DNA of 64,000 nt from Cyclobacteriaceae bacterium (GCA_041689935.1 JBDNFI010000012.1:5483-69482), one strand, 5' to 3'; shown: positions 27,577-45,753, counted from the stretch's first letter. Notes: a model not told the origin generated them from the sequence alone. Made by a program: numbers and translations.

Positions 27577-28329
27577 TTAGTTACTTTGTAATTCTGCCAG
27601 GCTTTCTATTAGCAAGGTGCAGTATTTCTCTACATATTTGGCGATCTGTTCAATTTGGGACTCATCTATATTTGATCCCTCTAGGAGTGCCTTTCCATCT
27701 TCTAGTTTTTGGGCTAAGTCCGGCAAATCAAGCATATCAATATTAGCTTTATGCTTATGTCTGATCTCTCGCAATCGATCCAAGTTTTGCTCTACCAAAT
27801 ATTGATTGTATAGAGTCATTAGTTCTTTTAAAGAGCTTATATAGAGCTTTATAAGCTCTTTCATAAAGAAAGCATCTCCTTGGGTCAGAAGAATGATTTT
27901 TCTTTTAATTTTATCTTTTGGAATATGAATTTTATCGCTTGTAGGGTCTTGTAGGTTTATTTCATACGGTTTAGCATATTTGGAAATAATGGCAAATAGT
28001 TCCGGTGGGCTAAAGGGTTTAGTGATAAATTCATTCATGCCAGCGTTGGCAACTTTCTCTTTTATTTCACCAAAAGATGCCGCAGTGAGGGCAATGATAG
28101 GTATAGTCTCATAATGAGAATTTATTTGTCTGATGGATTTGGTAGCTTCAAAGCCATCCATTTCTGGCATTTGAAGATCCATCAATATTAAATCGTAAGA
28201 CTCTTTCTGAGATTTTTCCAAGGCAATTCGGCCATTATCAGCTAGGTCTGGATTGATTCCCCATTTTTGAAGATATTTAGTTGCTACTAATTGGTTGACT
28301 TCGTTGTCCTCCACTAAAAGCACCTTCAT
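27577..28329 (-). CDS. Response-regulator receiver domain fused to an HPt domain
   Basis: The REC domain is MKVLLVEDNEVNQ...DLILMDLQMPEMDG...KP. The C-terminal helical bundle carries the HPt-like histidine (IRHKHKANIDML). The start at 28329 is preferred over the track start at 28359. Confidence 0.8.
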   Translation of the reverse strand: MKVLLVEDNEVNQLVATKYLQKWGINPDLADNGRIALEKSQKESYDLILMDLQMPEMDGFEATKSIRQINSHYETIPIIALTAASFGEIKEKVANAGMNEFITKPFSPPELFAIISKYAKPYEINLQDPTSDKIHIPKDKIKRKIILLTQGDAFFMKELIKLYISSLKELMTLYNQYLVEQNLDRLREIRHKHKANIDMLDLPDLAQKLEDGKALLEGSNIDESQIEQIAKYVEKYCTLLIESLAELQSN

Positions 28330-28617
28330 TGAAAAATGTGAGTTGCCAGTCAAATTCAAAATAGTTTTTGATTTTATAATTGATTCAAAGCTTCACGCTA
28401 AGCAAAGGTGCAAGTTATCGTTTTTTCTATTGCTAGAAGGATACTGTTTTCAAATATTTAGAAATTAAGTGAAGTTTCTAAAACTCAATTTCAGATATAT
28501 TGTTATTACTCAATTAAAGCTCTAATATTGTGGTAGTTCATTTATAATTAAATTAAATTGTAAATTATAAATTTTAAAATTATTTTTATGCTTGAAAAGA
28601 AATTAAATTAAAATTTT

Positions 28618-29433
28618 GTGAAAAAAATTAATTTTGTAGTAATAATTAGCTTTTTTATTTTGTCAAACAATGCTTTTGGTCAGGAGAGCGTGCGAACCAC
28701 AATTTCTATTGGAACCAATCTTTCACTATCTACCATCAATGACAAGGGGATGAGTTCTATTCAGTATGATGGATTTATTCCTAGTATTCACTCGCGTTTG
28801 GAAAGGCGTAAAGTTAATTCTATATCAACGTTCTTTATTAGTGGTGAAAAAGGAATATTAACTCCAAAAGGGAATAAAAATGGAAAAATTGGAACTGCAA
28901 ATCAGAATGGTTTTACTGCAAATTATTCTTATCTGAGGAAAATAAATTTAACGCAAAAAAGATGGGCAATTTACACCGGGTTGCAACTTGGGACACTTCT
29001 GAGAAGCAGATTGCACAACAACTTAGTAAATAGTGCTAGAATTTACGAAAATATCAATCACATTGGTCCAGCAATATATGTTGAAAGGAAGATTAATTTG
29101 TTCCAAATGCCTTTAGATATTAGCGTCAGGATGAATGTACCAGTGTTTGCTGCAGTTATTCGACCCTCCGTAACTAATTTGGGAGACTTTCTCGGGAGAA
29201 GAGATGAAGAATTGAAAGACAGATTCCAAGAGCACGGTTTTACATCCTTTGGCAACCTATTAATGATTCAAAATGAAGTGAGTTTAAAATATCAATTGAA
29301 CAAATCGGATGCGCTTGCCATTAACTATTCTTGGCAATACCTTGATTATTCAAAGGTCAATAGCTTACAGTATGCCAGTCAGGTAGTTGGCGTTAGTTAT
29401 GTTAAAGGTCTTTGGTACCAAAAAAATGAATAA
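28618..29433 (+). CDS. Putative outer-membrane beta-barrel protein, function unknown
   Basis: GTG start, signal peptide ending NAFGQ, alternating-hydrophobicity strands and a C-terminal aromatic-rich end. Confidence 0.45.
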   Translation: MKKINFVVIISFFILSNNAFGQESVRTTISIGTNLSLSTINDKGMSSIQYDGFIPSIHSRLERRKVNSISTFFISGEKGILTPKGNKNGKIGTANQNGFTANYSYLRKINLTQKRWAIYTGLQLGTLLRSRLHNNLVNSARIYENINHIGPAIYVERKINLFQMPLDISVRMNVPVFAAVIRPSVTNLGDFLGRRDEELKDRFQEHGFTSFGNLLMIQNEVSLKYQLNKSDALAINYSWQYLDYSKVNSLQYASQVVGVSYVKGLWYQKNE

Positions 29434-30490
29434 TTTATTCCAAAATGTTATGAGTAGATTAATTAAAGTTTCTGGATTAAGAAAAATGAGGTTATTAGTA
29501 ATAATCTTAGTTTTGGGCACATTTACCAGCTGTGAACTCGTGTTGCTTGACGATACACAACCAAACAATCCAGCGGGAAATTTTGATGCCTTGTGGAGTA
29601 TTTTGAATGAGCGATATGCATTCTTTCAAATAAAAAATGTTGATTGGGATTTGACTTACGAAGAGTTCCGACCAAAAATTAATAATGAAATGAGAAATCC
29701 TGAACTCTTTGATGTTTGTTTCGAGATGTTAGAAACCCTTCGGGATGGACATATTTTTTTGAAAGGGGATGCGAACAGACGAGAATATACAGTAGTGCCA
29801 GTATTGGATCAAGGTGTGTTTAGTAAAAATGTGCTTTTCACTACTTACCTGAGAGAACAGACAGAAGAGATTGATGGTGCCATTTATAGAGATTTTAACG
29901 ATATTGGATACCTTTATTATGAGAGTTTTACGGATGATTTTACTCAAAGTGGCCTCGATAAACTCGTAGATAACCTAGCCAACAAAAGAGGATTAATAAT
30001 TGATTTAAGAGGAAACTCTGGAGGAAATCCAAAAAATGCTTTCAGACTTGCAGAGCGTTTGGTGCCTGAACGCAGGGAGGTTATCTACTCGCGAGAGAAA
30101 ACAGGGCCAGGAAGAGAAGATTTTTCTGAAAGAGAAATATTCAGTGTCGACCCAAATTCTAAGCGTTTCGATGGCCCTATTACCATCCTCACAAGTAGTA
30201 TCACCTTCAGTGCAGCTAATTTATTCGTGGCGATAATGCGAAATTTTGATCATGTAACACTTTCGGGTAGACCTACTGGTGGAGGTGGAGGAATTCCTGC
30301 CGTGTTTGAGCTTCCGAATGGCTGGACATTTTCCTATAGTGCATCTCTCATTACAATGCCCGATGGCTATGTGATTGAAAATGGATTCGATCCAGATTTT
30401 TTCGTTCAAATCAGTTCAGGGTTTGTACTGATAGGCAGGGATACCATTCTTGAATTTTCAATCAATAATTTGCGAAATAGGGCGAATTGA
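29426..30490 (+). CDS. S41-family (tail-specific protease-like) peptidase lipoprotein
   Basis: LIIDLRGNSGGNP box and Ser-nucleophile region TSSITFSAANLF. The lipobox is LVLGTFTSC. The start is ambiguous (29387, 29426, 29450 or 29486). Confidence 0.75.
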   Translation: MNNLFQNVMSRLIKVSGLRKMRLLVIILVLGTFTSCELVLLDDTQPNNPAGNFDALWSILNERYAFFQIKNVDWDLTYEEFRPKINNEMRNPELFDVCFEMLETLRDGHIFLKGDANRREYTVVPVLDQGVFSKNVLFTTYLREQTEEIDGAIYRDFNDIGYLYYESFTDDFTQSGLDKLVDNLANKRGLIIDLRGNSGGNPKNAFRLAERLVPERREVIYSREKTGPGREDFSEREIFSVDPNSKRFDGPITILTSSITFSAANLFVAIMRNFDHVTLSGRPTGGGGGIPAVFELPNGWTFSYSASLITMPDGYVIENGFDPDFFVQISSGFVLIGRDTILEFSINNLRNRAN

Positions 30491-31398
30491 AATTTCTATT
30501 TGCCATAGCGTTTTCAATCCTTTTTGTAGCCTCATGTACCGCTCCGAAGGAAAAGGAAATTGGGTATAGAGCTGTTGATTTCGAAAGATTTGGTGATTAC
30601 TGGTATAAAGGGAAAGCCGAGCTAAATGCCTACCACCTCTCCCAATTCCGCTATGGCCAAGTAGTAGAAGGAGAGGCCGTTTTAATTTTTGTGACAGAGG
30701 ATTTTTCTCGTAGCAAAAAGGTGAAAGTGGATGAGATTGACAATGAAGATATGGCTCAAGTAAAGGTGATGAAACTAAATGCCACCCGCGATTTTCTTAC
30801 TGGAATATATCCTTATCATCTGATGTCCTCTACCTTTACACCCATTTACGGGGATGAGCAAAGTTTAAAAATAACCGCCTCCTCACAAGAATGGTGTGGG
30901 CAATCTTTTACCTTGATAGAGCGGGAGGATAAAGATTTCAACGCTATTCTTCATTCATATTTCGAGTCAGAAGCAAACTATTCTTCCACAATTTCTGGAG
31001 TACTGGAAGATGAGCTATGGAATTTAATTCGCCTAAATCCAGATCTACTGCCACAGGGTGAATTTATGGCTGTGCCGGGCGTGCTATCCCAGCGTATGTC
31101 GCATGCCGAATTGATGCCGTACAAAGCAAATGCAGAATTGGTTGATTCAGGAATAGAATTTATGGAAGTAGATCGCCCAACAAAAAAATATAGTATTCAA
31201 TATCCCGAAATAGGGCGAGAGTTAATGATTTATTTTACTGCTTCATTCCCCTTTGAAATCTTGGCTTGGGAAGAAAAAGCATCCTTCCGGGATCAAGCGT
31301 ATACTCGCGCCATCCGCAAAGGGAATTTGATGCTAGACTACTGGAAAAGAAACGCCCCAGCAGATACCGTTTGGAGAGATTCGTTGAAGTTGCGATGA
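30487..31398 (+). CDS. Lipoprotein of unknown function; its last 126 nt are duplicated at 34717-34842
   Basis: The TTG start overlaps the previous stop and the lipobox is FVASC. I recognise no family motif. Confidence 0.6.
   Translation: MKFLFAIAFSILFVASCTAPKEKEIGYRAVDFERFGDYWYKGKAELNAYHLSQFRYGQVVEGEAVLIFVTEDFSRSKKVKVDEIDNEDMAQVKVMKLNATRDFLTGIYPYHLMSSTFTPIYGDEQSLKITASSQEWCGQSFTLIEREDKDFNAILHSYFESEANYSSTISGVLEDELWNLIRLNPDLLPQGEFMAVPGVLSQRMSHAELMPYKANAELVDSGIEFMEVDRPTKKYSIQYPEIGRELMIYFTASFPFEILAWEEKASFRDQAYTRAIRKGNLMLDYWKRNAPADTVWRDSLKLR
31273..31398 (+). repeat. Copy A of a diverged direct repeat (partner at 34717-34842)
   Basis: Codon-by-codon alignment of the last 42 codons of the 30487-31398 gene with 34717-34842 shows 105/126 identical nt. 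Both copies end in TGA. Confidence 0.85.
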
Positions 31399-31753
31399 AG
31401 CCCACATTTCATTGGGAATTATTTTACTGATTTTAGAAATTACTGAATTTACTGTTTGGAATCCGAGTAATTCACTCATTACATAAAAAAACTACATTTT
31501 ATTGCTCATTTTAAGGCTTTTATCTATATAAAGATTCGTGCAAAATTTGCTTTCTTAATCAACAGTAATGACTCTTTGTAAATGATAATAAATCACTAAG
31601 CATCCTTCAAAAATGAATTCTTTATCCGGCCTCTTAGAAACAAAAGTTTGGTTAAAGAATAATTTGAACCTGTTTTGTTGTTTGAAAAATAACTGTTGAA
31701 ATATTAGTATTAATCATATTTTTTTTTATAATTTAACTCAGCAATTAAATAAA

Positions 31754-32002
31754 ATGAAAAGAATAAAGCTGTTATTAATTTTGTTTATTATTTCATTATT
31801 TTGATTAAGTTTAAATGCTGATCCATGTGGAGATAAGTGTAAGCAAGATTTAACTATCAATGCTAATGGTTATTGTAATACCACGCTAATCATGTGTCAT
31901 GAATCTTCAACTGGTGAAGTTTATGTAATGCGGTGCACTATAATTGTGCCTCATATTAATGCTGAGGAAAAAAGGTGCAAACGCCCTCTTTGGATGGAAT
32001 AA
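31754..32002 (+). pseudogene. Small Cys-rich secreted peptide gene interrupted by an in-frame TGA (codon 17)
   Basis: The ATG at 31754 gives MKRIKLLLILFIISLF-TGA(31802-31804)-LSLNADPCGDKCKQDLTINANGYCNTTLIMCHESSTGEVYVMRCTIIVPHINAEEKRCKRPLWME, ending in a stop at 32000-32002. It is a paralogue of the next ORF: both share D-x-CG-x-x-C, GY.C and M.C spacing. Confidence 0.6.
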
Positions 32003-32020
32003 TTTTAAACGTAATAAATT

Positions 32021-32257
32021 ATGAAAAAATTAATTCTATTTTTTGCAACAATAACACTTTATTTAGCATTTCCTAATGAATTGAAAAGTGGAGATTGTGG
32101 AGCTTCTTGTAGTTATACTCCATTTGACTTTGGGTATGAATGTAGAGAGGTTTTATATCTTTTTAATGGTCAATTTTATTGGGTAAATATGTGTGTGTCA
32201 GATACTATTCTTACTCCATTTAATAAGGTTGGAAATTGTATTATTCAAATCAAATAG
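32021..32257 (+). CDS. Small Cys-rich secreted peptide (78 aa)
   Basis: It has a signal peptide (MKKLILFFATITLYLAF) and a mature part with 5 Cys, including GDCGASC. It lies directly upstream of the two paralogous lipoprotein genes. Confidence 0.6.
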   Translation: MKKLILFFATITLYLAFPNELKSGDCGASCSYTPFDFGYECREVLYLFNGQFYWVNMCVSDTILTPFNKVGNCIIQIK

Positions 32258-32304
32258 TAAAAAAATCATTCATTTTTATGATAGATAATTTTTAGTCTAA
32301 CTTA

Positions 32305-33465
32305 TTGCTTTTACTTAGTTTTCTATTCTTAGTAAGCTGTAATTCCAGTAAAGGAATAGAGGATCCGTTAAAAGTTAAGGTGAATGAAGCGACGTATCTT
32401 TTAGGGGAGGAAAAGTTAGTGCTTCCGTTAGACTATGAATCGGGTGTTGATTCTTATATTAGGGGATACGTGGATTTTGACAGATATTTCTTCTATAATA
32501 AAAGCAATAAAAGTATATATACATACTTATTACGAGACTCCCTTTTCGAACTCGAATACATTACCCAAGTTCCTTTGAGTTTGGATAGCCATTTACAAAG
32601 AGTTGCTGAAGTATATTATCATAATACAGATTCGATTTTCGTTTTTGATGATCGTAATTTATATGGGGATCGTCCTGATTTGTTTCTTATCAATGTAAAT
32701 GGAGAGATACTTAATTCCTATAAACTTTCTAATGTCACGAATGGTGATGTAATGAAACTCGATAGACTGTATACGATTACAGGTCCCACTGTGTACTATC
32801 ATAAAGGTAAAATTTATATGGCCACAAGTTTGAGCGACCAAACGACCAAGGAAAATTTGAAACCTCTTTTGATTTATGATTTAGTTACAGGCGAAAAGAC
32901 ACTTCGTGGGGAATTCCCCTTGCTCCCCACTACTCCAATTTTTGGTCAATTTACTTACTCTTTTCAGTTTGTGTTTGTTCCAGATAGAGAAGAATTATAT
33001 TTCTCATGGGCTTATGAATCAGACTTATATCGTTATAGCTTGGTGAAGGATACTTGGGAAAAATTTAGATTTAGTGCAGATGAGTTTTCTAGGCCAGATG
33101 AAATGACTAAAAGGGACAATCTGCGATCCTATACTGAGTCTAACTCTTGGTTTTACGGCGTTTTTTACGATTACAAAACTAAAAGATTGCATAGACAATT
33201 GCTTTCTAGTCTTACTGAATTTAGCCCAACGATGAGTTCATCTAATTTGGTTCAAGGCTTGGTATTGACTCCTGATGAACAACGAATGGTTGTTTATAGT
33301 ATTGATATAGAAACAGGAAACTATGATGTAGTACATGGGTTTAGTCATTTTAGGACAATATTGTTTCACCCACGCCTCGGCCCTCTAATGCAAACACAGT
33401 TAAATGAATCTTACAACCTAGATGTAGAAGATTACTTAATTTTAGCCCCTATTGTTATTCAATAA
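32305..33465 (+). CDS. Lipoprotein, paralogue 1 (possibly beta-propeller/DUF4221-like; unverified)
   Basis: TTG start and lipobox FLVSC. It shows clear homology to the next ORF: YYHNTDSIFVFD vs CYHNQDSIFVYD, GPTVYYHKGKIYMA vs GPTMIYHKGNMYFS, and YFSWAYESDLYRY vs YFSYAYDSDLYVF. Confidence 0.7.
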   Translation: MLLLSFLFLVSCNSSKGIEDPLKVKVNEATYLLGEEKLVLPLDYESGVDSYIRGYVDFDRYFFYNKSNKSIYTYLLRDSLFELEYITQVPLSLDSHLQRVAEVYYHNTDSIFVFDDRNLYGDRPDLFLINVNGEILNSYKLSNVTNGDVMKLDRLYTITGPTVYYHKGKIYMATSLSDQTTKENLKPLLIYDLVTGEKTLRGEFPLLPTTPIFGQFTYSFQFVFVPDREELYFSWAYESDLYRYSLVKDTWEKFRFSADEFSRPDEMTKRDNLRSYTESNSWFYGVFYDYKTKRLHRQLLSSLTEFSPTMSSSNLVQGLVLTPDEQRMVVYSIDIETGNYDVVHGFSHFRTILFHPRLGPLMQTQLNESYNLDVEDYLILAPIVIQ

Positions 33466-33484
33466 TTTTACAATTTCATTAATT

Positions 33485-34660
33485 ATGCGATTATTTTTAT
33501 CCTTTTTGATTCTTGCAATTGTACTTACAGTTGCATTTGCCTGTTCAAATTTGGAGGAGGCATATGAAGTAAAAATTACTAATAAGAAGGTTCAGGTAGG
33601 AGACATGTTGATTGGGATTAAATTAGATTCTGTCAGTGGATCCTACTACAAAATAAAGGGAATTACTCCGCTAAATGAATATTATTATTTTAATCCCTAC
33701 AATTTAAGTATTTATCTATATGACTTAACCGACAGTATCAATGATGTTAAGAAAAGAATAAGAATTCCGTTGGATGCCTCAATCAATTTCCGCAATGTAG
33801 ACGATATCTGCTATCATAATCAGGACTCAATATTTGTATATGATAACTCAAATGAAGAGGGCTCGAATGCTGACTTATTTTTATTGAATGGGGAGGGAGC
33901 TATTGTCAATTCATTTAATGTTTTTGACCTGAGTCAAGGTGATCCTATGAGGGTTCCAAAGGATAATGTTTTTAACGGGCCAACGATGATTTACCATAAA
34001 GGGAATATGTATTTTTCTGCATTGCCAACTAGTAGGACCAACTCTGATAAAATTGCGCCCTTATTGAAATACAACTTAGCAAAAAGAGAACGAAGTCTTT
34101 TGGGAGATTTTGAAATAAAAATACCAGATTCTTATCATTACGTACAATTTACCATGAATGGTTTTATTGATTTCAATCCGAAGACAGAAAAGATATATTT
34201 TTCCTACGCTTATGATTCTGATTTATATGTTTTTGATATCAATAAGCAAGAATGGAAAACGCTTAGGTTCATGGCTGATCTGTTCAGAAGTCCAGATGGT
34301 ATTGGTACAGCTGAGGTTATTCCTTATATACAAGAAAATACATGGTTTATGTACCTAATGGTTGACCCTAGAGATAATACGGTGCTTAGAAAACTCTCTA
34401 TCCCAAATGATGCTTCATTGCCTGATGACTTTGATAACAATTCGATGCTCCCGCCACCGTTATTTAATCAGTGGTTATTCAAAATTGATCCAAATACAGG
34501 TGATTATGTTCAAGTTTCTGATTTTGACTTGCGTAAAGTAAGGTTTATTCATCCGAAATGGGGACCTATGATTACCGTTCAAGTAAATTACGATTCTTTA
34601 GGTCTTGATCCTCAAGATTATATATTCTTCTCGCCAGTTGATTTTTCTGGTCCTGAATAG
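33485..34660 (+). CDS. Lipoprotein, paralogue 2
   Basis: The ATG at 33485 gives MRLFLSFLILAIVLTVAFAC (lipobox). The track start at 33452 overlaps the previous gene. It is homologous to 32305-33465 along its whole length. Confidence 0.7.
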   Translation: MRLFLSFLILAIVLTVAFACSNLEEAYEVKITNKKVQVGDMLIGIKLDSVSGSYYKIKGITPLNEYYYFNPYNLSIYLYDLTDSINDVKKRIRIPLDASINFRNVDDICYHNQDSIFVYDNSNEEGSNADLFLLNGEGAIVNSFNVFDLSQGDPMRVPKDNVFNGPTMIYHKGNMYFSALPTSRTNSDKIAPLLKYNLAKRERSLLGDFEIKIPDSYHYVQFTMNGFIDFNPKTEKIYFSYAYDSDLYVFDINKQEWKTLRFMADLFRSPDGIGTAEVIPYIQENTWFMYLMVDPRDNTVLRKLSIPNDASLPDDFDNNSMLPPPLFNQWLFKIDPNTGDYVQVSDFDLRKVRFIHPKWGPMITVQVNYDSLGLDPQDYIFFSPVDFSGPE

Positions 34661-34716
34661 ATTTGATTGAAATTCTAGATAACAATTAATCAACAAATTT
34701 TCTCTTAATTAGTATT

Positions 34717-34842
34717 GAAAAATCATCCTCCCGCGATCAAATATATACGCGTGCCACCCGCAAAGGCGATTTGATGCTAGATTATTGGAAAAGAAACGCG
34801 CCAGCAGATACAGTTTGGAGAGATTCGTTGAGTATGGATTGA
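34717..34842 (+). pseudogene. Orphan 3-prime fragment (42 codons) homologous to the end of the 30487-31398 gene
   Basis: It translates EKSSSRDQIYTRATRKGDLMLDYWKRNAPADTVWRDSLSMD-stop, against EKASFRDQAYTRAIRKGNLMLDYWKRNAPADTVWRDSLKLR-stop for the intact gene. There is an in-frame stop at 34687-34689 and no start upstream. Confidence 0.8.
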
Positions 34843-34904
34843 TTTCCCAATTCTAAGCTGATACTACTTCATCAAGCTTCATCATCAATAAAGCATTTAT
34901 CGAA

Positions 34905-35870
34905 TTAAAAATTCTGAGCTAAATAGAAATATAGTGGCATCCCAACAGTAATGTTTATCGGAAAGGTAACCGCCAGAGCCATTGGCAAGAATAAACCAGG
35001 GTTAGCTTCAGGCACAGATATTTTCATGGCAGCAGGTACAGCAATATAAGAAGCACCAGCGGCTAAGATGGCAAACAAGAATCTATTGCCTAGATCATCG
35101 GTAACTACTGAACTTATAATGGCAACGATGCTGCCATTAACCAATGGTATTACTATCGCAAAAATGAGCGGGAACCAGCCAAATGAAAAGAATGCTTTCA
35201 ATTTCCTACCACTTGTTATGCCCATATCCAACAGAAAGATTGCCAAAAACCCTTTGAACAAATCATTGGTGAAAGGTTCTATCCCTTCTGCTTGTTGCGC
35301 ATTTGCCAAATATCCAATGATCAAACTCCCCAGAATAAGCAACACGCTGCCGTTGGTAAATGAATGACGGAGGACGGCGATTTTGCTAATACTTTTATTC
35401 GAAGTTTCCTTATTGAAAATTGTGAGTAGCACTAGCCCAACAATAATCGCTGGCGACTCCATTAAGGCCATAATAGCAACCATATGCCCCTGTGCAACTA
35501 ATTGTTGCGATTCTAGAAATGATACTGCCGTCACAAAAGTAACCGCACTGACCGAACCATAAGCCGCTGCGACGGCTGCCGAATCATACACATTTAATTT
35601 TATTTTGAGTATCAAAAATGTGTAAACTGGAATGATCACTGCGATGGTCATACCAAACAACATTGACCAGCCTATTTCACTTGTAATAGCTTCGTGAGAT
35701 AATTCTTGACCTCCTTTAAAACCTATGGCAAAAAGTAGATAAAGAGAAATGAATTTCGATGAATTGGACGGTATTTCTAAATCACTTTTTAAATAAACAG
35801 CAATTATCCCAAGTACAAAAAACAATAAAGCAGGATTGGTTAGATTTTCAATAAGTAGGCTGAAATTCAT
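34905..35870 (-). CDS. Sodium-dependent bicarbonate transporter family permease (SbtA/DUF897-like)
   Basis: 321 aa with 10 TM-like segments. The N-terminus NPALLFFVLGIIAVYLKSDLEIP....KFISLYLLFAIGFKGG is typical of this family. Assignment is from memory. Confidence 0.65.
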   Translation of the reverse strand: MNFSLLIENLTNPALLFFVLGIIAVYLKSDLEIPSNSSKFISLYLLFAIGFKGGQELSHEAITSEIGWSMLFGMTIAVIIPVYTFLILKIKLNVYDSAAVAAAYGSVSAVTFVTAVSFLESQQLVAQGHMVAIMALMESPAIIVGLVLLTIFNKETSNKSISKIAVLRHSFTNGSVLLILGSLIIGYLANAQQAEGIEPFTNDLFKGFLAIFLLDMGITSGRKLKAFFSFGWFPLIFAIVIPLVNGSIVAIISSVVTDDLGNRFLFAILAAGASYIAVPAAMKISVPEANPGLFLPMALAVTFPINITVGMPLYFYLAQNF

Positions 35871-39728: not shown

Positions 39729-41036
39729 TTATGCATTGAGGTCTAATAGAGTGGAGGCAATATCCTCCCGCAGTTTTACGGTAATTTCTACCTCTTTGGC
39801 AAAGCTCGCCCATTGATTCACGGTTTCATTAATTTCATCAATTATTTGTGATGCTTTTTTACATCGGATGGATTTCCCAATGACCATCAAATCTGTTTTA
39901 GTAATATTTTTCCTTTTACCATTTACGCTCAAAGCATGCTGACTTACCCATTCGCTACCTGGCCTGTAAGCATGGCAAATATCATAGGCAGGAGCCAACT
40001 CCCATTTGCTATTTTGTTTTAGTAGGAATGAGAAATTCTTGGTATGGTCGTCACAATTACGAGCGATTACATTAAACACCATTCTTCTAAACATCTGTTC
40101 GGCATCAGTATAGCTCAGTTTTAACTCACGCATACACTGAAAAAGCTGCTCATAACTAAAGCTATTTACGAGGTTGAAATCGAAATGCTTTAAAGCGCAA
40201 AAGGTTTGAACATGGTATTTTGCCTCGCCACCTGCCCGGTCGAAACGCTTAGTCATAAAATGAGCCCGACCATTTTCTTCCAAAAGGCGGGAGGGCATCA
40301 TCTCTATGCCACATTTTGTTGCCATGTTGAAGTAGGCCATTTCTACTCTTCCATACCCTTTGCTTGAGCCTAATTGCACATCGCTTACGCCATCTAGTTT
40401 AATCAGCCAATGCTCGTAACCCTTAGGGGCTTTGGTTTGGCCTGATTTTACTTCTCCAGTTTTTTCGTTCCACGCTATTACTGCCTTTGGACGAGCACCA
40501 CCGGCAGAAGTGCCAATTTTCAAAATATCCAAAACCGCTTCTTTTTCTTCTTTATTTAGGTTGGTGGTAAATGCCTCCCGTAGGTTGAGCATTTTTTGGG
40601 CGGTAGCAACCAAGCTATCAATTTCTATGGAGAATGAGCGCTTGGTTTCGGTGAACATAACTGGTTCAAATTCCAATGCCCCCATACCACGAGTGCCGAT
40701 GAAACACAGCATTTCCACCGGATTCATACTGTCTTGTGGGCGACCTTGCTGTGCCAGCCAAAGGTTAATCATTTGATTCCCGTATTTATCAGGCAATGCA
40801 TCGGCTAATAGACCGGGTAAGCCTTTGAAGGTGTCGTTTTCTGGGTCTCTATCTTTTCGCAATTCTGGAAATGAAAATTGATTCCTATTATCGGAAATAG
40901 GCATTTTGAGTGGCGACAAATCCCAGCCTAATTGCCTGAATTTGGGGTCATATTCAAAAGTAGCATAGCCTGTTTCTGGAGCCCAGGCAATAGCGCCAAC
41001 TAATTCACCCCATATTTTTACTTCTGCTACTTGCAT
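39729..41036 (-). CDS. hipA: Type II toxin HipA (Ser/Thr kinase)
   Basis: 435 aa with the N-terminal coupling domain (VWG..VG.I). Kinase core: GGARPKA loop and catalytic DDHTKNFSF. Confidence 0.92.
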   Translation of the reverse strand: MQVAEVKIWGELVGAIAWAPETGYATFEYDPKFRQLGWDLSPLKMPISDNRNQFSFPELRKDRDPENDTFKGLPGLLADALPDKYGNQMINLWLAQQGRPQDSMNPVEMLCFIGTRGMGALEFEPVMFTETKRSFSIEIDSLVATAQKMLNLREAFTTNLNKEEKEAVLDILKIGTSAGGARPKAVIAWNEKTGEVKSGQTKAPKGYEHWLIKLDGVSDVQLGSSKGYGRVEMAYFNMATKCGIEMMPSRLLEENGRAHFMTKRFDRAGGEAKYHVQTFCALKHFDFNLVNSFSYEQLFQCMRELKLSYTDAEQMFRRMVFNVIARNCDDHTKNFSFLLKQNSKWELAPAYDICHAYRPGSEWVSQHALSVNGKRKNITKTDLMVIGKSIRCKKASQIIDEINETVNQWASFAKEVEITVKLREDIASTLLDLNA

Positions 41037-41039
41037 TGC

Positions 41040-41405
41040 CTACCAATCTATTTCTTCAGAGTCCTTGGTGTTTTTTGTTGATTTGCCTCTTGCTCTATGG
41101 CGTTTATTTTTTTGCAGTTTCGCCAAAGCCAGAGGGCTTAGGGTTTCTTTTACTTCAAATAGGCTAAGCACCTGCAATTGATCCAAAATCCTCAATACCT
41201 GTATAAGCGTAGTCAAAGTTACTGTTTCGCCTCTCTCCAGCAAACTCAGCGTAGACCGACTGATGCCGGCTGCTGCTGACAATTCATCCTGAGTTTTATT
41301 CTGCTCCATCCGGTGATGCCTTACAAATAGCCCAACGTATTCGGTAAGCACTTTATCGCTTATAGAATGCATTTTGTTGAATGATTTATCAGTCATAAAT
41401 GGCAT
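41040..41405 (-). CDS. hipB: HipB-like XRE-family antitoxin / transcriptional repressor
   Basis: The HTH is KTQDELSAAAGISRSTLSLLERGE. It lies 3 nt upstream of hipA. The real start may be the internal ATG at 41372. Confidence 0.85.
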   Translation of the reverse strand: MPFMTDKSFNKMHSISDKVLTEYVGLFVRHHRMEQNKTQDELSAAAGISRSTLSLLERGETVTLTTLIQVLRILDQLQVLSLFEVKETLSPLALAKLQKNKRHRARGKSTKNTKDSEEIDW

Positions 41406-41416
41406 TTTTATGTATT

Positions 41417-41528
41417 AGTGAATGATATATCATGCGAATGTAGTGCTTTTTTTAGTAAAACAAAAAATGAATGGAATATCATTCATTAAGCTACTTATTT
41501 GACTATAGTGACTGATATATCATTCATT
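41417..41528. promoter_or_regulatory. Three 22-bp palindromic operator-like sites upstream of hipB
   Basis: S1 (41417) is AGTGAATGATATATCATGCGAA. S2 (41466) is AATGAATGGAATATCATTCATT. S3 (41507) is AGTGACTGATATATCATTCATT. The shared consensus is ArTGAATG-N6-CATTCATT. Confidence 0.7.
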
Positions 41529-41656
41529 TTTATATTCTAAAGCCAAACTACGAAAATCGAAGGTGAATATTACGTTTTTATTTGTGCCACTAGTTTTAGC
41601 TGTGGTGGTTTATGTGGTTGATTTTTCTCAGGTGTGACAGTTTGAGAACGGAGGGC

Positions 41657-41704
41657 GGATTGCAAATCCTATTTTATCTGGCTTCGAGATTACAAATCTC
41701 GAAG
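41657..41704. other. Two tandem short hairpins (GGATTGCAAATCC and CTTCGAGATTACAAATCTCGAAG) downstream of the three-gene operon
   Basis: The first has a 5-bp stem with a 3-nt loop. The second has a perfect 9-bp stem with a 5-nt loop. They share the core GATTrCAAATC. Neither is followed by a U-tract on the minus strand. Confidence 0.4.
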
Positions 41705-41741
41705 AGGTGGATTAAGTCGGCTTGCAGAGTAATTACATAAT

Positions 41742-42599
41742 TCAATATTTCTGTTTGCTTGGGATTACGCCTCTAATTCCACCCGTTGGATCATCTACGT
41801 CACCGCCATATCGCGGAATTAAGTGGATATGAACATGGTCAATAGTTTGTCCAGCTTTACTTCCGATGTTTATGCCAATATTAAATCCATCAGGTTCAAA
41901 TCGTATTTTTAAAAGCTCCTTGACTTTATTGAGAACAAACCAGCAAGCAGATTGCTCTTTAAATGTTAAATCAAAATAATTGGCACAATGCTTTTTGTGG
42001 ATAATTAATGTGTGCCCTTTATTCACTGGATATTTATCAAATATGGCATATACCATCGCAGATTCAAGAATTAGCTCGCTTTCTGATTCTGGATTACAAA
42101 ATGGGCACCCTATATTTTCGACTCGACTAATTTGATTAAAATGTCTGTACTCATAGATTTCACAATTATCATTTCTGTAAAAGGATTTTGAATTTAAAAT
42201 CACATTACACTGATAAGTTTGCTTTTGATGAATTTTATGAGTTCTAAAACCTTCAAATTGCAGATCCCTCCTAACTGCGATATAAACTTTTCCAGTTGGT
42301 TTTACTAATTGAGATAGCTCCATCAAAACAATAGCTTGCTCCTCTGGTAGGAGTACATTCAATACGTAAAAGCAAAGTATTGTATCAAACTTTCTTTTTG
42401 GGTATTCGGGAAAATAATGCTTGTCGTACCCAGTAATATCAATTCCTTTTTCTTTCATCAACTCAACGTCTTTTCCAAAACCACACCCGAAATCCAATAC
42501 TTCTCCTTTTAGCAAATTCTTATTTAAAAGGAGTTTTGCTGGGAACGAAAGAGCATGTCTTTCTTTAGCGGTGAGGTGATTATAATTATTGAATCCCAT
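41742..42599 (-). CDS. Fusion protein: class I SAM-dependent methyltransferase (N) + histidine-triad (HIT) nucleotide hydrolase/transferase (C)
   Basis: MTase motif I is VLDFGCGFGKD and the post-I motif is ITGYD. The HIT domain starts at CPFCNP..., continues with PVNKGHTLIIHKKH and has the triad IDHVHIHLIPR. Its ATG shares a base with the upstream stop (TAATG). Confidence 0.8.
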   Translation of the reverse strand: MGFNNYNHLTAKERHALSFPAKLLLNKNLLKGEVLDFGCGFGKDVELMKEKGIDITGYDKHYFPEYPKRKFDTILCFYVLNVLLPEEQAIVLMELSQLVKPTGKVYIAVRRDLQFEGFRTHKIHQKQTYQCNVILNSKSFYRNDNCEIYEYRHFNQISRVENIGCPFCNPESESELILESAMVYAIFDKYPVNKGHTLIIHKKHCANYFDLTFKEQSACWFVLNKVKELLKIRFEPDGFNIGINIGSKAGQTIDHVHIHLIPRYGGDVDDPTGGIRGVIPSKQKY

Positions 42600-43645
42600 T
42601 ATTTCATAAATTCAAAGCCATTGTTTGATGCAATTGTGATTAATGGTTGTACGTTTTCAAGAAATTTTTCTTTGGAAAAGCCCTGATTTTGATCTGGGAA
42701 GATTGTTAAGTAGTCTTGAAGTATTGTATTATTTGGGCTATTGTGCTTTACAATATCAAATGCAATTTTTTGTAAATTGAAAAATGAATCAAAATACAAA
42801 TCAAGAGGTGGGAGTTTGTTACCCTTTGAGCTATTGTATGATTTGTCTGCAGGAATTAAATTCCAAATTAAATCGTGGGAGACAAAACTATAAGGAATGA
42901 AATGTTCGAGAGCATAATTTCCCTTACAGAGATCTTTTCCTGTATAGATGCATTTAACTGATCCAATTTCTTTAATAACTAAATCCCAAAATTGAGATTT
43001 TTGCCGATTTAAGCTATTCCTTTTAGCGGCCTTAATCAATTTATTTGGTATGTCAGGTACATTAGGGTTTTTTGATTGAAGAAACAAGGCAAGATTCCAA
43101 TAACAAAAACCTTTAATTACTCCTGTTGCTTTTTTTAAATATTTAATCCATTGAGGGTTAATAATAATGTGATCGTCAAACAGAGCATATAAGCACCAGT
43201 TATTAAAATCCTCAGACTCTGAATAAATTCGTTTCGATCTTTGAAAGTCAGTTTCACCTTTCAATTTCGGAAACCAAGGCGTTAGAAACCAATGCGGAAC
43301 ATTGTTATTATAATGTTTAAGTATCTTTAAGGTGTCACTATTTGTTGTCCTTGATAATTTTTGGAAAACCAATGGTTGTCTTTCATCAATGGAAATTTGT
43401 TCAATTTCTTTTATATCTCGTATTGAATCTTGCTTTCCAAAGGAAACCTGAAAGTAGTTTACCGTATGCCATGCATTAGAAATCATTCTTGCAAATAAAT
43501 CCTTTTTCGCAATTTTTGATTGTCCCATTTCAATTTCTTCTAAAATGGATATTAGCCAATAAAACTTATATGTTGCAGATGTCTTATTAAAACAAGCAGC
43601 AAGAATGTTTATTGGCAACTCTTTTGAATCAGGTAAGTTGCTCAT
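42599..43645 (-). CDS. HNH (His-Me finger) nuclease-domain protein with an unassigned N-terminal region of about 250 aa
   Basis: The C-terminal motif is ALEHFIPYSFVSHDLIWNLIPADKSYNSSKGNK (H...H..WNL.P....N..K). The ORF is open to 43693. The ATG at 43645 lies one nt after the upstream TGA. Confidence 0.75.
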   Translation of the reverse strand: MSNLPDSKELPINILAACFNKTSATYKFYWLISILEEIEMGQSKIAKKDLFARMISNAWHTVNYFQVSFGKQDSIRDIKEIEQISIDERQPLVFQKLSRTTNSDTLKILKHYNNNVPHWFLTPWFPKLKGETDFQRSKRIYSESEDFNNWCLYALFDDHIIINPQWIKYLKKATGVIKGFCYWNLALFLQSKNPNVPDIPNKLIKAAKRNSLNRQKSQFWDLVIKEIGSVKCIYTGKDLCKGNYALEHFIPYSFVSHDLIWNLIPADKSYNSSKGNKLPPLDLYFDSFFNLQKIAFDIVKHNSPNNTILQDYLTIFPDQNQGFSKEKFLENVQPLITIASNNGFEFMK

Positions 43646-43646
43646 T

Positions 43647-44504
43647 TCAAACTCTGATTTCATTCGTCTCATATTCCTTAAGTGTTTTGCCACTTTTAAG
43701 TTTCCATTCTGTTAGACCATTTGCATTTCGCCCTAGAACAATAGAGGCTGCAGTAGAGGGGCTGCTAAAAATGTAGTCCTCAGGAAAATCTAAAAATTCC
43801 TTTCTATCAATTAGTACGCCTTCGTCAATTAGTTTTTGGCGAAATGTTACAAAATTTTGTGTCATCGAAACCACAATGGAACCCGCAGCTTTTGAACCTT
43901 TAAATACGACAAACCCATCAGAACTTGGCTGTCCTTTGCCATCAGATCCTCGTGCAGATTTAATGAAAAATGTATCTTGCTGTTGTTTAGGTCTAAATTC
44001 TCTTTTTTCATCAAATACTTTATGGCCTAAAGTGTTAACCAACATTTTGATGTATTCTATAAACTCTTCCATCTCAGCTCTATCAGGTTCTGAAATTGAC
44101 GATTGAGTTGGAATTATAGAATTATCAACTTTATATCGATTGGCAATTTTCGCGATGTCGTGGAGTCTATTTTCTAAGTATTTGATATGAGCCTTATTTA
44201 AGTTCTCATCTTTGCTGATAAATACTATTGCTTCGTTCCAAAAATCTTTCTGAGTTAGTTGTTGATTAAGGCGTTTCAATATGGATTCAGCTTCACCAAT
44301 ATATACTTGATCTTTTCCTTCATCATCCTTCCCAAATAACAAGTAAACCCCAGTACTGGTCAGGTCATCTCGGTCTACGCAGTCCTTAATTTTTATTCTT
44401 GGAATTTTATAAGCTTTGCCTGACCAGTTAGAAAGTTCACAGCTCATCCTTCCATTTGGATCTCCATCAATGAGAAATATCTTTATTGTTTTACCGAATT
44501 TCAT
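43647..44504 (-). CDS. GIY-YIG nuclease-domain protein with a DUF4357-like C-terminal domain
   Basis: The GIY-YIG core is GVYLLFGK-x9[13 protein letters not shown]...NEA. The C-terminal block is [23 protein letters not shown]. The ATG at 44504 is preferred to the TTG at 44525. Confidence 0.75.
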
Positions 44505-44610
44505 TTTGGAAATGTTGTCTACCAATAAAACTACCTCTTTTCACTCAAAAAATAAAATAGCAGAAAGCCATAATTGTAGGAGTTCCCAAGCTCAACGCCT
44601 AAAAAAGCAA

Positions 44611-44640
44611 AAAACCCTACTAAAGCTAGCAGGGTTTTTT
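44611..44640. terminator. Bidirectional rho-independent terminator downstream of tRNA-Ser
   Basis: The sequence is aaaaccctacta-aagc-tagcagggtttttt: an 8-bp stem with one mismatch, flanked by A6 and T6. Confidence 0.75.
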
Positions 44641-44647
44641 GTTGATG

Positions 44648-44732
44648 CAGAGGAGGAGGGATTCGAACCCCCGGTACCTTGCGGTACAACGGTTTTCAAG
44701 ACCGCCGCATTCGACCACTCTGCCACTCCTCT
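44648..44732 (-). tRNA. tRNA-Ser (anticodon UGA)
   Basis: The reverse complement reads AGAGGAG-TG-GCA-GAGTGGTCGAA-TGC-G-GCGGT-CTTGAAA-ACCGT-long variable arm (GTACCGCAAGGTAC)-GGGGGTTCGAATCCCTC-CTCCTCT-G. It is 85 nt, has a class II variable arm and the anticodon loop CU-UGA-AA. CCA is not encoded. Confidence 0.9.
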
Positions 44733-44787
44733 GTGTTTTGCAGAATTTCGAGCTGCAAATGTAAAAGAAAATTGATTGAAGACAATA

Positions 44788-45753
44788 CTAAATCGTAATA
44801 ATTTCTTGATCTGGACCATCTGTATTATCGCTAAGGACTTTGGCGCGATCCAAGGTGGCATTCAGTACGAAGCCTAGCAGAATAATCACCGCCAATATAT
44901 AAAACCACACCATCACCGCGATCAATGCGCCTATAGAGCCATATAGCTTGTTGTACATCCCGAAATTGTTGATGTATAGCGAAAATCCTAATGAAGCTAA
45001 TACACTAAGGAGTGCGGCTAGCACTGCTCCCCAGCTAAAAAAGTGCCATCGGTCGTGGATGGCAGGCGCGAAATAATAAATGGTAGCGATCGCAAAAAGG
45101 AAAACCACAAAAATGACTAAAAAGCGTAAGAGATAAATCAAATAGATCATATAACTCGCGTCGAGGATGTCCTGAGGATATACATAGTTGATTACCGCCT
45201 CGCCTACTGTGAGTAGAATAATAGCCAAAAACAAAGTGAATGCTAAAATACCTGTGAGGAAGGCAGCCATCATCCGCGTTTTCAGAAAGCCCCTAACCTC
45301 CCGCGTTTGATAGCAGGCGTTGAATGCTTTGATTATAGACATGGTGCCATTAGTGGCCAAAAAGGTGGAAGTCAAAAAACCAATAGTCAGCAAATCTCCT
45401 CTTGATTTACTTACAATATCTTCTATCGTTTGGCTTGTAAACTCATACACCGTTGCTGGTAATACTTCTTTCAAAAAACCCAAAATTGCCTGCTCGCTAA
45501 AGGGCTCATAGAAATACTGTATATACGGAATGAGGGTAAACAAGAAAATGATGGCAGGAAATATAGACAGCGTGAAATTGAAGGCAATACCGTTGGCTTT
45601 ATCCCAAATGTCGTCTTTGGTGAGTTTGCGAGCGAAAAGCTTGAGAAACTGATATAATGAGAAGGTATCTTTTATCACCTCTATCCCCTCCAAATAGTTG
45701 ACGCTTTTGGTGATGATTTTCGATGATTTTATCTTCTCAAGTAGATTAGTCAT
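44788..45753 (-). CDS. YihY/BrkB-family membrane protein
   Basis: 321 aa with six TM helices and the FNFTLSIFPAIIFL and YGSIGALIAVMVWFY blocks typical of YihY. Confidence 0.8.
   Translation of the reverse strand: MTNLLEKIKSSKIITKSVNYLEGIEVIKDTFSLYQFLKLFARKLTKDDIWDKANGIAFNFTLSIFPAIIFLFTLIPYIQYFYEPFSEQAILGFLKEVLPATVYEFTSQTIEDIVSKSRGDLLTIGFLTSTFLATNGTMSIIKAFNACYQTREVRGFLKTRMMAAFLTGILAFTLFLAIILLTVGEAVINYVYPQDILDASYMIYLIYLLRFLVIFVVFLFAIATIYYFAPAIHDRWHFFSWGAVLAALLSVLASLGFSLYINNFGMYNKLYGSIGALIAVMVWFYILAVIILLGFVLNATLDRAKVLSDNTDGPDQEIITI

Follow-up and report, generated by a model that had tools for sequence, protein, structure and literature searches.

The SspE and DndI effectors, which sense DNA phosphorothioation (PT), have an N-terminal DUF262 followed by a DUF1524/HNH domain (PMC11662687), and membership in this group is defined by the DUF262, a ParB-like NTPase with a DGQQR motif, together with the C-terminal DUF1524. 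Among the genes of PT loci, DUF4007 corresponds to SspB, DUF6079 to SspC/BrxC and the PAPS reductase to SspD/BrxP (PMC12839542, bioRxiv 10.1101/2024.06.03.597175). The BREX type 4 locus of Bacteroides salyersiae has the order brxP-mcrA-brxC, and its 'mcrA' is dispensable for PT synthesis (bioRxiv 10.1101/2024.06.03.597175). The HIT family contributes ThsC, an optional accessory of type II Thoeris defence systems (PMC8565338), and HIT enzymes hydrolyse nucleoside 5'-thiophosphates (PMC8775712). DUF4357 is described as a C-terminal add-on of the type IV restriction proteins GmrSD and McrB and of GIY-YIG and T5orf172 proteins (PMC4619093, PMC5714182, PMC11090510). We analyzed a locus in a 64,000-nt stretch of DNA from a Cyclobacteriaceae bacterium (GCA_041689935.1 JBDNFI010000012.1:5483-69482; hereafter the window, with coordinates counted from its first letter and positions 41,742-44,610 as the part presented). 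Here three open reading frames (ORFs) encode a DUF4357 protein of the PADLOC PDC-S14 type (ORF1), a predicted HNH nuclease (ORF2) and a fusion of an S-adenosylmethionine (SAM) methyltransferase (MTase) with a HIT domain (ORF3). A preliminary description of the window had read the trio as one undescribed defence system beside a tRNA landing site. Our analysis points instead to a locus that is probably a small composite defence islet, in which two independent modules, Module A (ORF1) and Module B (ORF2 and ORF3), have been joined in one transcription unit in this lineage only.

The three minus-strand ORFs fill positions 41742-44525, with hipBA on one side and tRNA-Ser(UGA) on the other, and the coordinates and both start/stop-coupled junctions were confirmed as first described. 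The ORF1 stop TGA (43649-43647) is followed 1 nt later by ATG 43645 of ORF2, and in TAATG (42601-42597) the ORF2 stop overlaps the ORF3 start. ORF1 extends over 43647-44525 with a TTG start or 43647-44504 (285 aa) with an ATG start; ATG 44504 is the more likely of the two, because gene callers picked the same start in two other contigs, L081 and L094. ORF2 covers 42599-43693 with a GTG start or 42599-43645 (348 aa) with ATG 43645, and an alignment with 15 homologs identifies ATG 43645, not the upstream GTG, as the real start. ORF3 encodes 285 aa. GC content over ORF2 and ORF3 is 0.32-0.34, against ~0.40 for the window. The domain calls of the preliminary description for DUF4357, HNH, SAM-methyltransferase and HIT are all confirmed by Pfam. 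The features of the two modules are:

43647-44504 (alternative TTG start at 44525), minus strand: ORF1, PDC-S14-type, with a GIY-YIG-like region at nt 44127-44351 and DUF4357 at nt 43680-43841
42599-43645, minus strand: ORF2, with an all-alpha N-terminal domain at aa 1-228 (nt 42962-43645)
42761-42952, minus strand: Cas9-type HNH domain of ORF2 (~aa 232-295), followed by a C-terminal helical extension
41742-42599, minus strand: ORF3, with a class I SAM-methyltransferase domain at aa 23-110 (nt 42270-42533)
41796-42107, minus strand: HIT domain of ORF3 (aa 165-268) with the HVHIHLI motif, fused to the methyltransferase

We scanned one genome per GTDB species (185,579 genomes) with a pattern-seeded search, which returned 236 genomes with an ORF2 relative, a lower bound. 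The best 80 of these 236 loci were taken with 10-kb flanks, and all neighbouring ORFs were compared by tblastn and clustering. An independent metagenome scan gave 66 loci, of which 36 were assessable for ORF1 upstream and 45 for the downstream partner. ORF1 is absent beside the ORF2 relatives in all 80 species loci, and the single metagenome locus of the 36 that has it belongs to the same organism (99-100% identity). The full three-gene arrangement occurs only in contigs of that organism (L081, L115, L116, L173). A diverged relative, L094, also has ORF1 adjacent to ORF2 (91% and 78% identical, respectively; dS ~1.1-1.5), in a contig that ends ahead of ORF3 and whose upstream flank diverges after ~90 nt and lacks the tRNA. 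From the side of ORF1, both ORF2 and ORF3 are missing in every other context examined. The claim of one three-gene system fails this synteny comparison, because ORF1 is not syntenic with ORF2 and ORF3 outside this lineage.

ORF2 and ORF3, by contrast, recur as a pair, and sequence comparison indicates that they are a genuine conserved, translationally coupled two-gene module. Directly downstream of ORF2 we found an MTase-HIT gene in ~45, a HIT-only gene in ~11 and neither in ~24 of the 80 species loci; the corresponding metagenome counts are 32, 1 and 12 of 45, and an MTase-HIT or HIT gene stands directly 3' of the HNH gene in ~70% of loci. No other gene around the pair is conserved among the species loci, where the flanks are highly variable. 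Other loci repeat the tight ORF2-ORF3 junction, L090 with an overlap of 1 nt, and in L083 the ORF3 homolog is 81% identical while the adjacent HNH protein is only ~31% identical to ORF2. HIT-only relatives on plasmids of Hymenobacter canadensis, Persicobacter and Polaromonas adjoin HNH proteins of ~340 aa. In Polaromonas the HIT-HNH gene order is inverted, and the HNH protein can be aligned with the ORF2 profile across 254 columns that take in both domains (96% probability); the two Cytophagales HNH proteins, from H. canadensis and Persicobacter, align only from the pre-HNH region onward. Since the pairing survives changes of phylum and inversion of gene order, a functional linkage between HNH and HIT is indicated. 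Both ORF2 and ORF3 are under strong purifying selection across saturated synonymous divergence.

The distribution of the cassette is patchy (236 matches in 185,579 species genomes, with the lower bound stated above) and includes Bacteroidota, Cyanobacteria and Proteobacteria, while the ORF2 family is rare in phages. The cassette is absent from PADLOC-DB v2, where ORF2 has only weak matches to Cas9 models and PDC-M01B, and ORF3 only weak matches to ThsC and mad2. In the searchable literature we found no described HNH+HIT(+MTase) system or HIT-containing anti-phage nuclease system, only surveys and unrelated systems. The ORF2-ORF3 cassette thus appears to be undescribed, and to this extent the earlier statement that the locus matches no named system stands; it does not extend to ORF1, which corresponds to the PADLOC candidate PDC-S14.

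The neighbours of the cassette in other genomes bear out the earlier view that these are genes of a defence-island type. They include ResIII, SNF2 and UvrD helicases, PLD nucleases, GmrSD, SLFN-type helicases, KAP and MORC-like ATPases, HEC-06, PDC-S41 and Wadjet, with housekeeping genes mixed in. In L024 the cassette is directly followed, on its own strand, by the Wadjet genes JetA and JetC, which enclose a 192-aa gene (L024:11892-17315). Genes or fragments of SspB (DUF4007), SspC or SspD directly flank the cassette in 13 of the 80 species loci and in 6 more metagenome loci. As sspBCD occurs in only ~3% of genomes (bioRxiv 10.1101/2024.06.03.597175), the 13 flanking occurrences represent a very large enrichment. 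An SspD-like gene adjoins the HNH-MTase/HIT pair in eight loci (L007, L010, L015, L021, L035, L043, L044, L046), directly after ORF3 on the same strand in six of them, before ORF2 in L015 and on the opposite strand in L035. Its product, an SspD-like PAPS reductase of 368 aa, matches the PADLOC SspD model at 9.8e-94. None of these eight loci has an intact SspB or SspC within 10 kb, and SspD together with the HNH-MTase/HIT pair may constitute a distinct three-gene variant. In two loci SspB and the N-terminal half of SspC lie upstream of ORF2, and in L090 a C-terminal fragment of SspE follows the cassette. A scenario in which the cassette splits sspC in two was rejected: what follows ORF3 in L056 matches neither SspC nor any other PADLOC model and is not the missing half of SspC, and the other genes downstream of the cassette are Wadjet or unrelated genes.

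Three small features accompany the cassette in other loci (L090; also L003, L006, L008 and L083), none of them present in the window. One is an ORF of ~110 aa with constant boundaries, found upstream of ORF2 in several loci, which represents the N-terminal part of SspB/DUF4007 (e.g. L090:6256-6594). The others are a conserved 68-aa gene that overlaps the ORF2 start (L090:6753-6959) and a conserved 79-80-aa gene after ORF3 (L090:8872-9114). These features may be regulators or extra components.

Full-length relatives of ORF2 are also carried by plasmids (27-31% identity, 98-99% coverage), and PT-type genes surround the ORF2-family HNH gene on four of the seven annotated plasmids:

Hymenobacter yonginensis plasmid: cysteine desulfurase, DUF4007, a 1158-aa protein and PAPS reductase
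Synechocystis pSYSM: DUF4007 upstream and cysteine desulfurase downstream, with a 'DNA phosphorothioation-associated putative methyltransferase' in the same locus
Geminocystis plasmid: DUF4007, PAPS reductase and DndB
Leptolyngbya plasmid: cysteine desulfurase
Nostoc, Allochromatium and Calothrix plasmids: no PT genes

On the Hymenobacter plasmid the HNH gene adjoins an apparently complete ssp gene set and does not interrupt it. In pSYSM (L101:5426-6382) a LAGLIDADG endonuclease gene lies on the opposite strand between the SspC-like and ORF2-family HNH genes. The recurrent link of the two-gene module to Ssp PT loci goes beyond the preliminary description and is a lead worth following.

The HNH domain of ORF2 matches HNH_4 in Pfam (2.8e-9, 37.2 bits against a cutoff of 22), and D/E247-H248, N262 and N271 are nearly invariant among 96 diverse members; ORF2 accordingly has an intact Cas9-type HNH nuclease core and is a predicted active nuclease. 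The AlphaFold2 model built on the 96-sequence alignment has a predicted local distance difference test score (pLDDT) of 96.5 and a predicted template modelling score (pTM) of 0.91. It replaced a first model from a shallow alignment of 16 sequences, which had a pLDDT of 67 and gave meaningless fold matches. Foldseek searches of PDB and BFVD found counterparts only for the HNH domain, in Cas9 (probabilities up to 0.9) and in phage HNH proteins; for the all-alpha N-terminal domain they returned no match at E <= 0.001. Its 228 residues have no Pfam match even at E <= 10, which agrees with the earlier remark that the N-terminal ~250 aa contain no recognisable motif. A diverged DUF4007/SspB origin of this domain was rejected at an hhalign probability of 0.3%. 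An exhaustive search collected 1,211 clusters of the N-terminal domain at 50% identity, and the architecture of the family is constant, since nearly all full-length members are 350-390 aa long. We also rejected an identification of ORF2 as Cas9, a protein defined by RuvC and REC lobes, given its 348 aa and NCBIfam Cas9 scores of 20-23 bits against cutoffs of 100-375, with only the HNH aligned.

JGI labels the relatives of ORF2 'McrA'. The family resembles the SspE/DndI effectors in that both are His-Me-finger nucleases found beside PT genes that can also occur away from them. ORF2 differs from these effectors in having neither a DUF262/ParB-like NTPase nor a DUF1524 domain, and in its Cas9-type (HNH_4) nuclease; it matched neither GmrSD_N nor GmrSD_C at E <= 10, nor the PADLOC SspE model. 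Enzymes of the ScoMcrA/TagI type (SBD and/or SRA with HNH) share with ORF2 the layout of an N-terminal reader and a C-terminal HNH within a few hundred residues. The ORF2 family also shares its occurrence within or close to PT loci with these enzymes and with the B. salyersiae 'mcrA'. Unlike them, ORF2 has no SBD or SRA by Pfam or by fold search against PDB, and none of the ScoMcrA/TagI-type enzymes has the HIT or MTase-HIT partner seen here.

ORF3 belongs to a family with ~3,000 matches at 74-81% identity, named 'bifunctional class I SAM-dependent methyltransferase/HIT family protein' by NCBI, while JGI labels its relatives 'Ap4A HIT family hydrolase'. The HIT domain (PF01230) scores 4.8e-22 (78.9 bits against a cutoff of 21.5), contains the HVHIHLI motif and matches PDB HIT proteins at 2e-18; the methyltransferase domain matches Methyltransf_23 at 4e-12. 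Both the HIT motif and motif I for SAM binding are intact in the protein. It has no match to a DNA-MTase family, only to Methyltransf_23, _11, _12, _25 and _31, and no DPPY/NPPY or PCQ motif in its sequence, in keeping with the earlier conclusion that the locus is not a canonical restriction-modification (R-M) system. Residues 8-83 align with positions 5-82 of the 478 in TIGR04096, the 'DNA phosphorothioation-associated putative methyltransferase' (2.5e-16, 59.5 bits against a cutoff of 150). This similarity to the N-terminal 78 positions of the family is accompanied by the presence of a TIGR04096-named protein in the Synechocystis pSYSM locus that holds an ORF2-family HNH. The match nevertheless lies below the cutoff and covers only the N-terminal sixth, and ORF3 has a HIT domain where TIGR04096 has its own C-terminal region. 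Thoeris ThsC is matched weakly (3e-9), but ThsA and ThsB are both missing here, and ORF3 has an HNH nuclease as its partner and a methyltransferase fused to its HIT domain. HIT enzymes hydrolyse AMP-linked adducts in addition to 5'-thiophosphates, and the handling of thio- or adenylyl-nucleotides by ORF3 is therefore chemically plausible.

ORF1 is by sequence assignable as a new member of a catalogued candidate family. It matches the PADLOC PDC-S14 model PDLC04925 at E = 2.6e-120, with aa 4-288 on profile positions 9-296 of 301, and the four other PDC-S14 models as well (all five in total). DUF4357 (PF14267) is found at 7.6e-23 (80.7 bits against a cutoff of 38.4) with all 54 profile positions covered. 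The evidence for the GIY-YIG assignment of the preliminary description is mixed. The matches lie at the residues it had named, GVY...YIGEA...R...E..N motifs are visible in the sequence and the NCBI name for the relatives is 'GIY-YIG nuclease family protein', but both PF01541 (E = 0.034, 14.9 bits against a cutoff of 22.6) and T5orf172 (E = 0.067) remain sub-threshold. ORF1 has no sequence match in PDB. Its family has >7,600 members, and across several Bacteroidota orders its close relatives share 85-91% identity. Synonymous sites in this subfamily are saturated (proportion of synonymous differences, pS, ~0.8) at a non-synonymous divergence (dN) of ~0.08, values that indicate strong purifying selection and on which recent horizontal spread was rejected as the cause of the high identity. 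The close relatives examined (L095-L100) stand alone among housekeeping genes; the homologs at L095:6001-6864 and L100:6001-6864 are examples, a setting that would be odd for a gene presumed to act in defence. More distant relatives on plasmids (35-52% identity) are placed next to R-M or defence-type genes in all four cases examined: directly after hsdR-hsdM-hsdS, at a type I R-M system, at a GmrSD-like gene, and at a helicase with a DNA methyltransferase. ORF1 thus agrees with PDC-S14 in its end-to-end match, length, domain order and relatives beside R-M systems; it departs from it in being joined in an operon to an unrelated cassette and in the unusual conservation of its Bacteroidota subfamily, with close relatives amid housekeeping genes. 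We found no functional study of PDC-S14 in the literature, where it is mentioned only in genome surveys.

We propose that Module A would be an autonomous, probably modification-reading DNA nuclease of the GIY-YIG type, usually placed beside other restriction systems. In Module B, ORF2 would be the effector, an HNH DNA nuclease targeted or gated by its 230-residue N-terminal domain. It may be a restriction nuclease that senses the modification state of DNA, with PT as the prime suspect; this role is suggested by the occurrence of the family both alone and in Ssp/BREX-4-type PT loci, with the HIT partner being optional. ORF3 would be an accessory that combines a small SAM-methyltransferase with a Hint/Fhit-like HIT nucleotide hydrolase or transferase, and might process a nucleotide-linked substrate arising during ORF2 activity. 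This substrate may be a thio- or adenylyl-nucleotide, a DNA-end adduct or a nucleotide with a regulatory role. A protective DNA methylase is not what we infer for ORF3, because ORF2 genes are often solitary and can also be paired with HIT alone. In our interpretation the cassette most likely combines a restriction nuclease linked to DNA modification with a partner that processes nucleotides. A more specific proposal, which we regard as tentative, is that ORF2 and ORF3 form an undescribed PT-linked module, whose N-terminal domain reads phosphorothioated or adenylylated DNA and whose HIT-MTase acts on sulfur- or AMP-bearing ends or nucleotides. The HIT-MTase would in that case, for example, desulfurate or cap thionucleotides released on cleavage, or erase the mark of the invader.

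Several observations weigh against the composite islet and the roles proposed for its parts. SspA, SspB, SspC and SspD were not found in the 64-kb window by tblastn and hidden Markov model searches, and Ssp/Dnd genes as a whole are missing from it. Sixty-seven of the 80 cassette loci have no Ssp genes within 10 kb and the rest have partial sets only; the PT link may stem from a common island location or common ancestry and not from a current function. PDC-S14 is itself only a computational candidate, and the 86-91% conservation of close ORF1 relatives amid housekeeping genes is unusual for a defence gene. L094 keeps the same tight ORF1-ORF2 junction under a different upstream flank, so that a lineage-specific functional coupling of ORF1 with ORF2 is possible. 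Gene structure, domain content, the recurrence of the pair but not of the trio, and the defence and PT neighbourhoods are observed; the biochemical roles of the three proteins are all inferred.

Four other explanations were considered. An R-M-like pair, in which ORF3 marks host DNA with a methyl or nucleotidyl-derived group and ORF2 cuts unmarked DNA, would fit the coupling of the genes, the greater conservation of the enzyme than of the nuclease, the relation of the MTase N-terminus to a dnd-associated MTase family and the mobile, island-like distribution of the cassette. We nevertheless consider it unlikely: 27-30% of ORF2-family loci have no ORF3 partner and others a HIT-only partner without the MTase, where an unprotected toxic nuclease would not be tolerated, and the methyltransferase resembles only generic class I families. 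It is improbable that the cassette is a selfish or addiction element (a free-standing HNH with cargo, or a toxin/antitoxin-like pair) that erodes ssp-type loci. Strong purifying selection acts on both genes over saturated synonymous divergence, neither a repeated target site nor an intact/interrupted gene pair was found, the gene downstream in L056 is not the missing SspC half, the Hymenobacter plasmid HNH gene sits beside an apparently complete, uninterrupted ssp set, and phages seldom carry the family. Such an element would, on the other hand, account for the highly variable flanks, for the truncated genes that the cassette abuts (the SspC N-terminal half, the SspB N-terminal fragment and the SspE C-terminal fragment), for its position next to hipBA in the window and for the LAGLIDADG gene in the homologous Synechocystis locus.

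The reading of ORF1, ORF2 and ORF3 as one integrated three-component system with interdependent parts draws on the tight start/stop coupling, which leaves no space for an internal promoter, on the ORF1-ORF2 adjacency kept in L094 over its synonymous divergence and changed upstream flank, and on the GC content of all three genes, which is below the window average. It is quite improbable, given that none of the 80 species genomes and only one of the 36 assessable metagenome loci has ORF1 next to ORF2, that the ORF1 family lacks ORF2 and ORF3 in the other contexts examined, and that the ORF2-ORF3 unit occurs with many different neighbours. A chance grouping, with ORF3 as an Ap4A or nucleotide-salvage HIT hydrolase joined to a small-molecule methyltransferase and with ORF1 and ORF2 as repair nucleases, is highly improbable. 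The JGI label of ORF3 relatives, the very conserved close relatives of ORF1 amid housekeeping genes and the housekeeping genes in some cassette flanks would suit it, but the HNH-HIT pairing is kept across phyla and through order inversion, defence genes are heavily represented among the cassette neighbours, and the distribution is patchy even as a pattern-seeded lower bound. We therefore retain two modules, joined in this lineage, as the probable reading.

The surroundings of the operon comprise the following features:

44647-44732, minus strand: tRNA-Ser, anticodon UGA (ARAGORN), the upstream neighbour, outside both modules; the operon lies on its 3' side
44608-44641, minus strand: terminator-like hairpin with a 15-pair stem and a T-run after the tRNA (terminator scan), which parts the tRNA from the ORF1 promoter region
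44505-44600, minus strand: region upstream of ORF1, conserved with L094, the presumed operon promoter
41682-41704, minus strand: hairpin with a 10-bp stem and no U-tract, starting 38 nt past the ORF3 stop
39729-41405, minus strand: toxin-antitoxin pair hipB (41040-41405) and hipA (39729-41036) (Pfam and NCBIfam), downstream, outside both modules

The proximal part of the region upstream of ORF1 has a 45-nt BLAST match to L094 (91%), and the alignment is conserved over ~90 nt. Positions 41660-41745 fold as RNA at -20 kcal/mol (z = -3.4), and none of 200 shuffles folds as well; the hairpin at 41682-41704 is probably the end of the operon, with a putative terminator function. The hipBA pair is not kept beside the cassette in the 80 species loci. 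Motifs resembling TAGTGAnTGATATATCAT are repeated upstream of hipB (41416-41433, 41468-41487, 41506-41528); they probably serve as operators for HipB, in which case hipBA would be transcribed as a unit of its own.

The tRNA had been taken for a landing site of acquired DNA, and this part of the preliminary description is not borne out. The 3' end of the tRNA has a single copy in the window, with no att-type repeat, and no integrase was found among the neighbour genes scanned, a set that lies at lower coordinates than the operon and does not take in the ORFs beyond the tRNA. L094 has the same ORF1-ORF2 block without an upstream tRNA. We therefore rejected an integrative island at tRNA-Ser as unsupported, as well as a habitual position of ORF1 beside a tRNA, since none was found at six other ORF1 loci. 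The 8-mer GCGGGAGG is a strongly over-represented genomic word, with 41 copies on both strands of the 64 kb (e.g. 748-755, 39764-39771, 45297-45304) against 0.78 expected from shuffles. The operon does fall, as first noted, in the longest GCGGGAGG-free gap of the window (40294-45297, 5.0 kb). Since 41 copies in 64 kb would leave ~1.7 gaps of this length by chance, the gap, although real, is statistically ordinary; it carries little weight and was rejected as a sign of foreign origin. Elsewhere in the window, a low-GC stretch at 28000-35000 (0.31-0.35) contains four ORFs without a Pfam match (28618-29433, 30487-31398, 32305-33465, 33452-34660) and a 115-nt direct repeat (31273-31387 and 34717-34831, 87% identical), and may be another acquired segment.

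The locus illustrates that start/stop coupling is not by itself enough to define a system and that defence modules can be spliced into one operon in a single lineage. A three-gene system would have been a false lead, and the separation of the modules shows which part merits experiments. That part, the ORF2-ORF3 cassette, represents a large family with a confidently modelled domain that has no known fold relative. It also has a HIT-methyltransferase partner of a class not yet tied mechanistically to nuclease-based immunity, an unprecedented partner for HNH restriction modules. If the PT link is functional, the cassette would offer a compact two-gene handle on the sensing or processing of backbone-modified DNA, and it could also explain the unassigned 'mcrA'-like genes within PT loci. 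If the tentative PT-linked mechanism is true, it would be the first role for HIT enzymes in DNA-backbone-modification immunity and would add a further class of PT effectors to DndFGH, DndI, SspE, SspFGH and the SBD-HNH enzymes.

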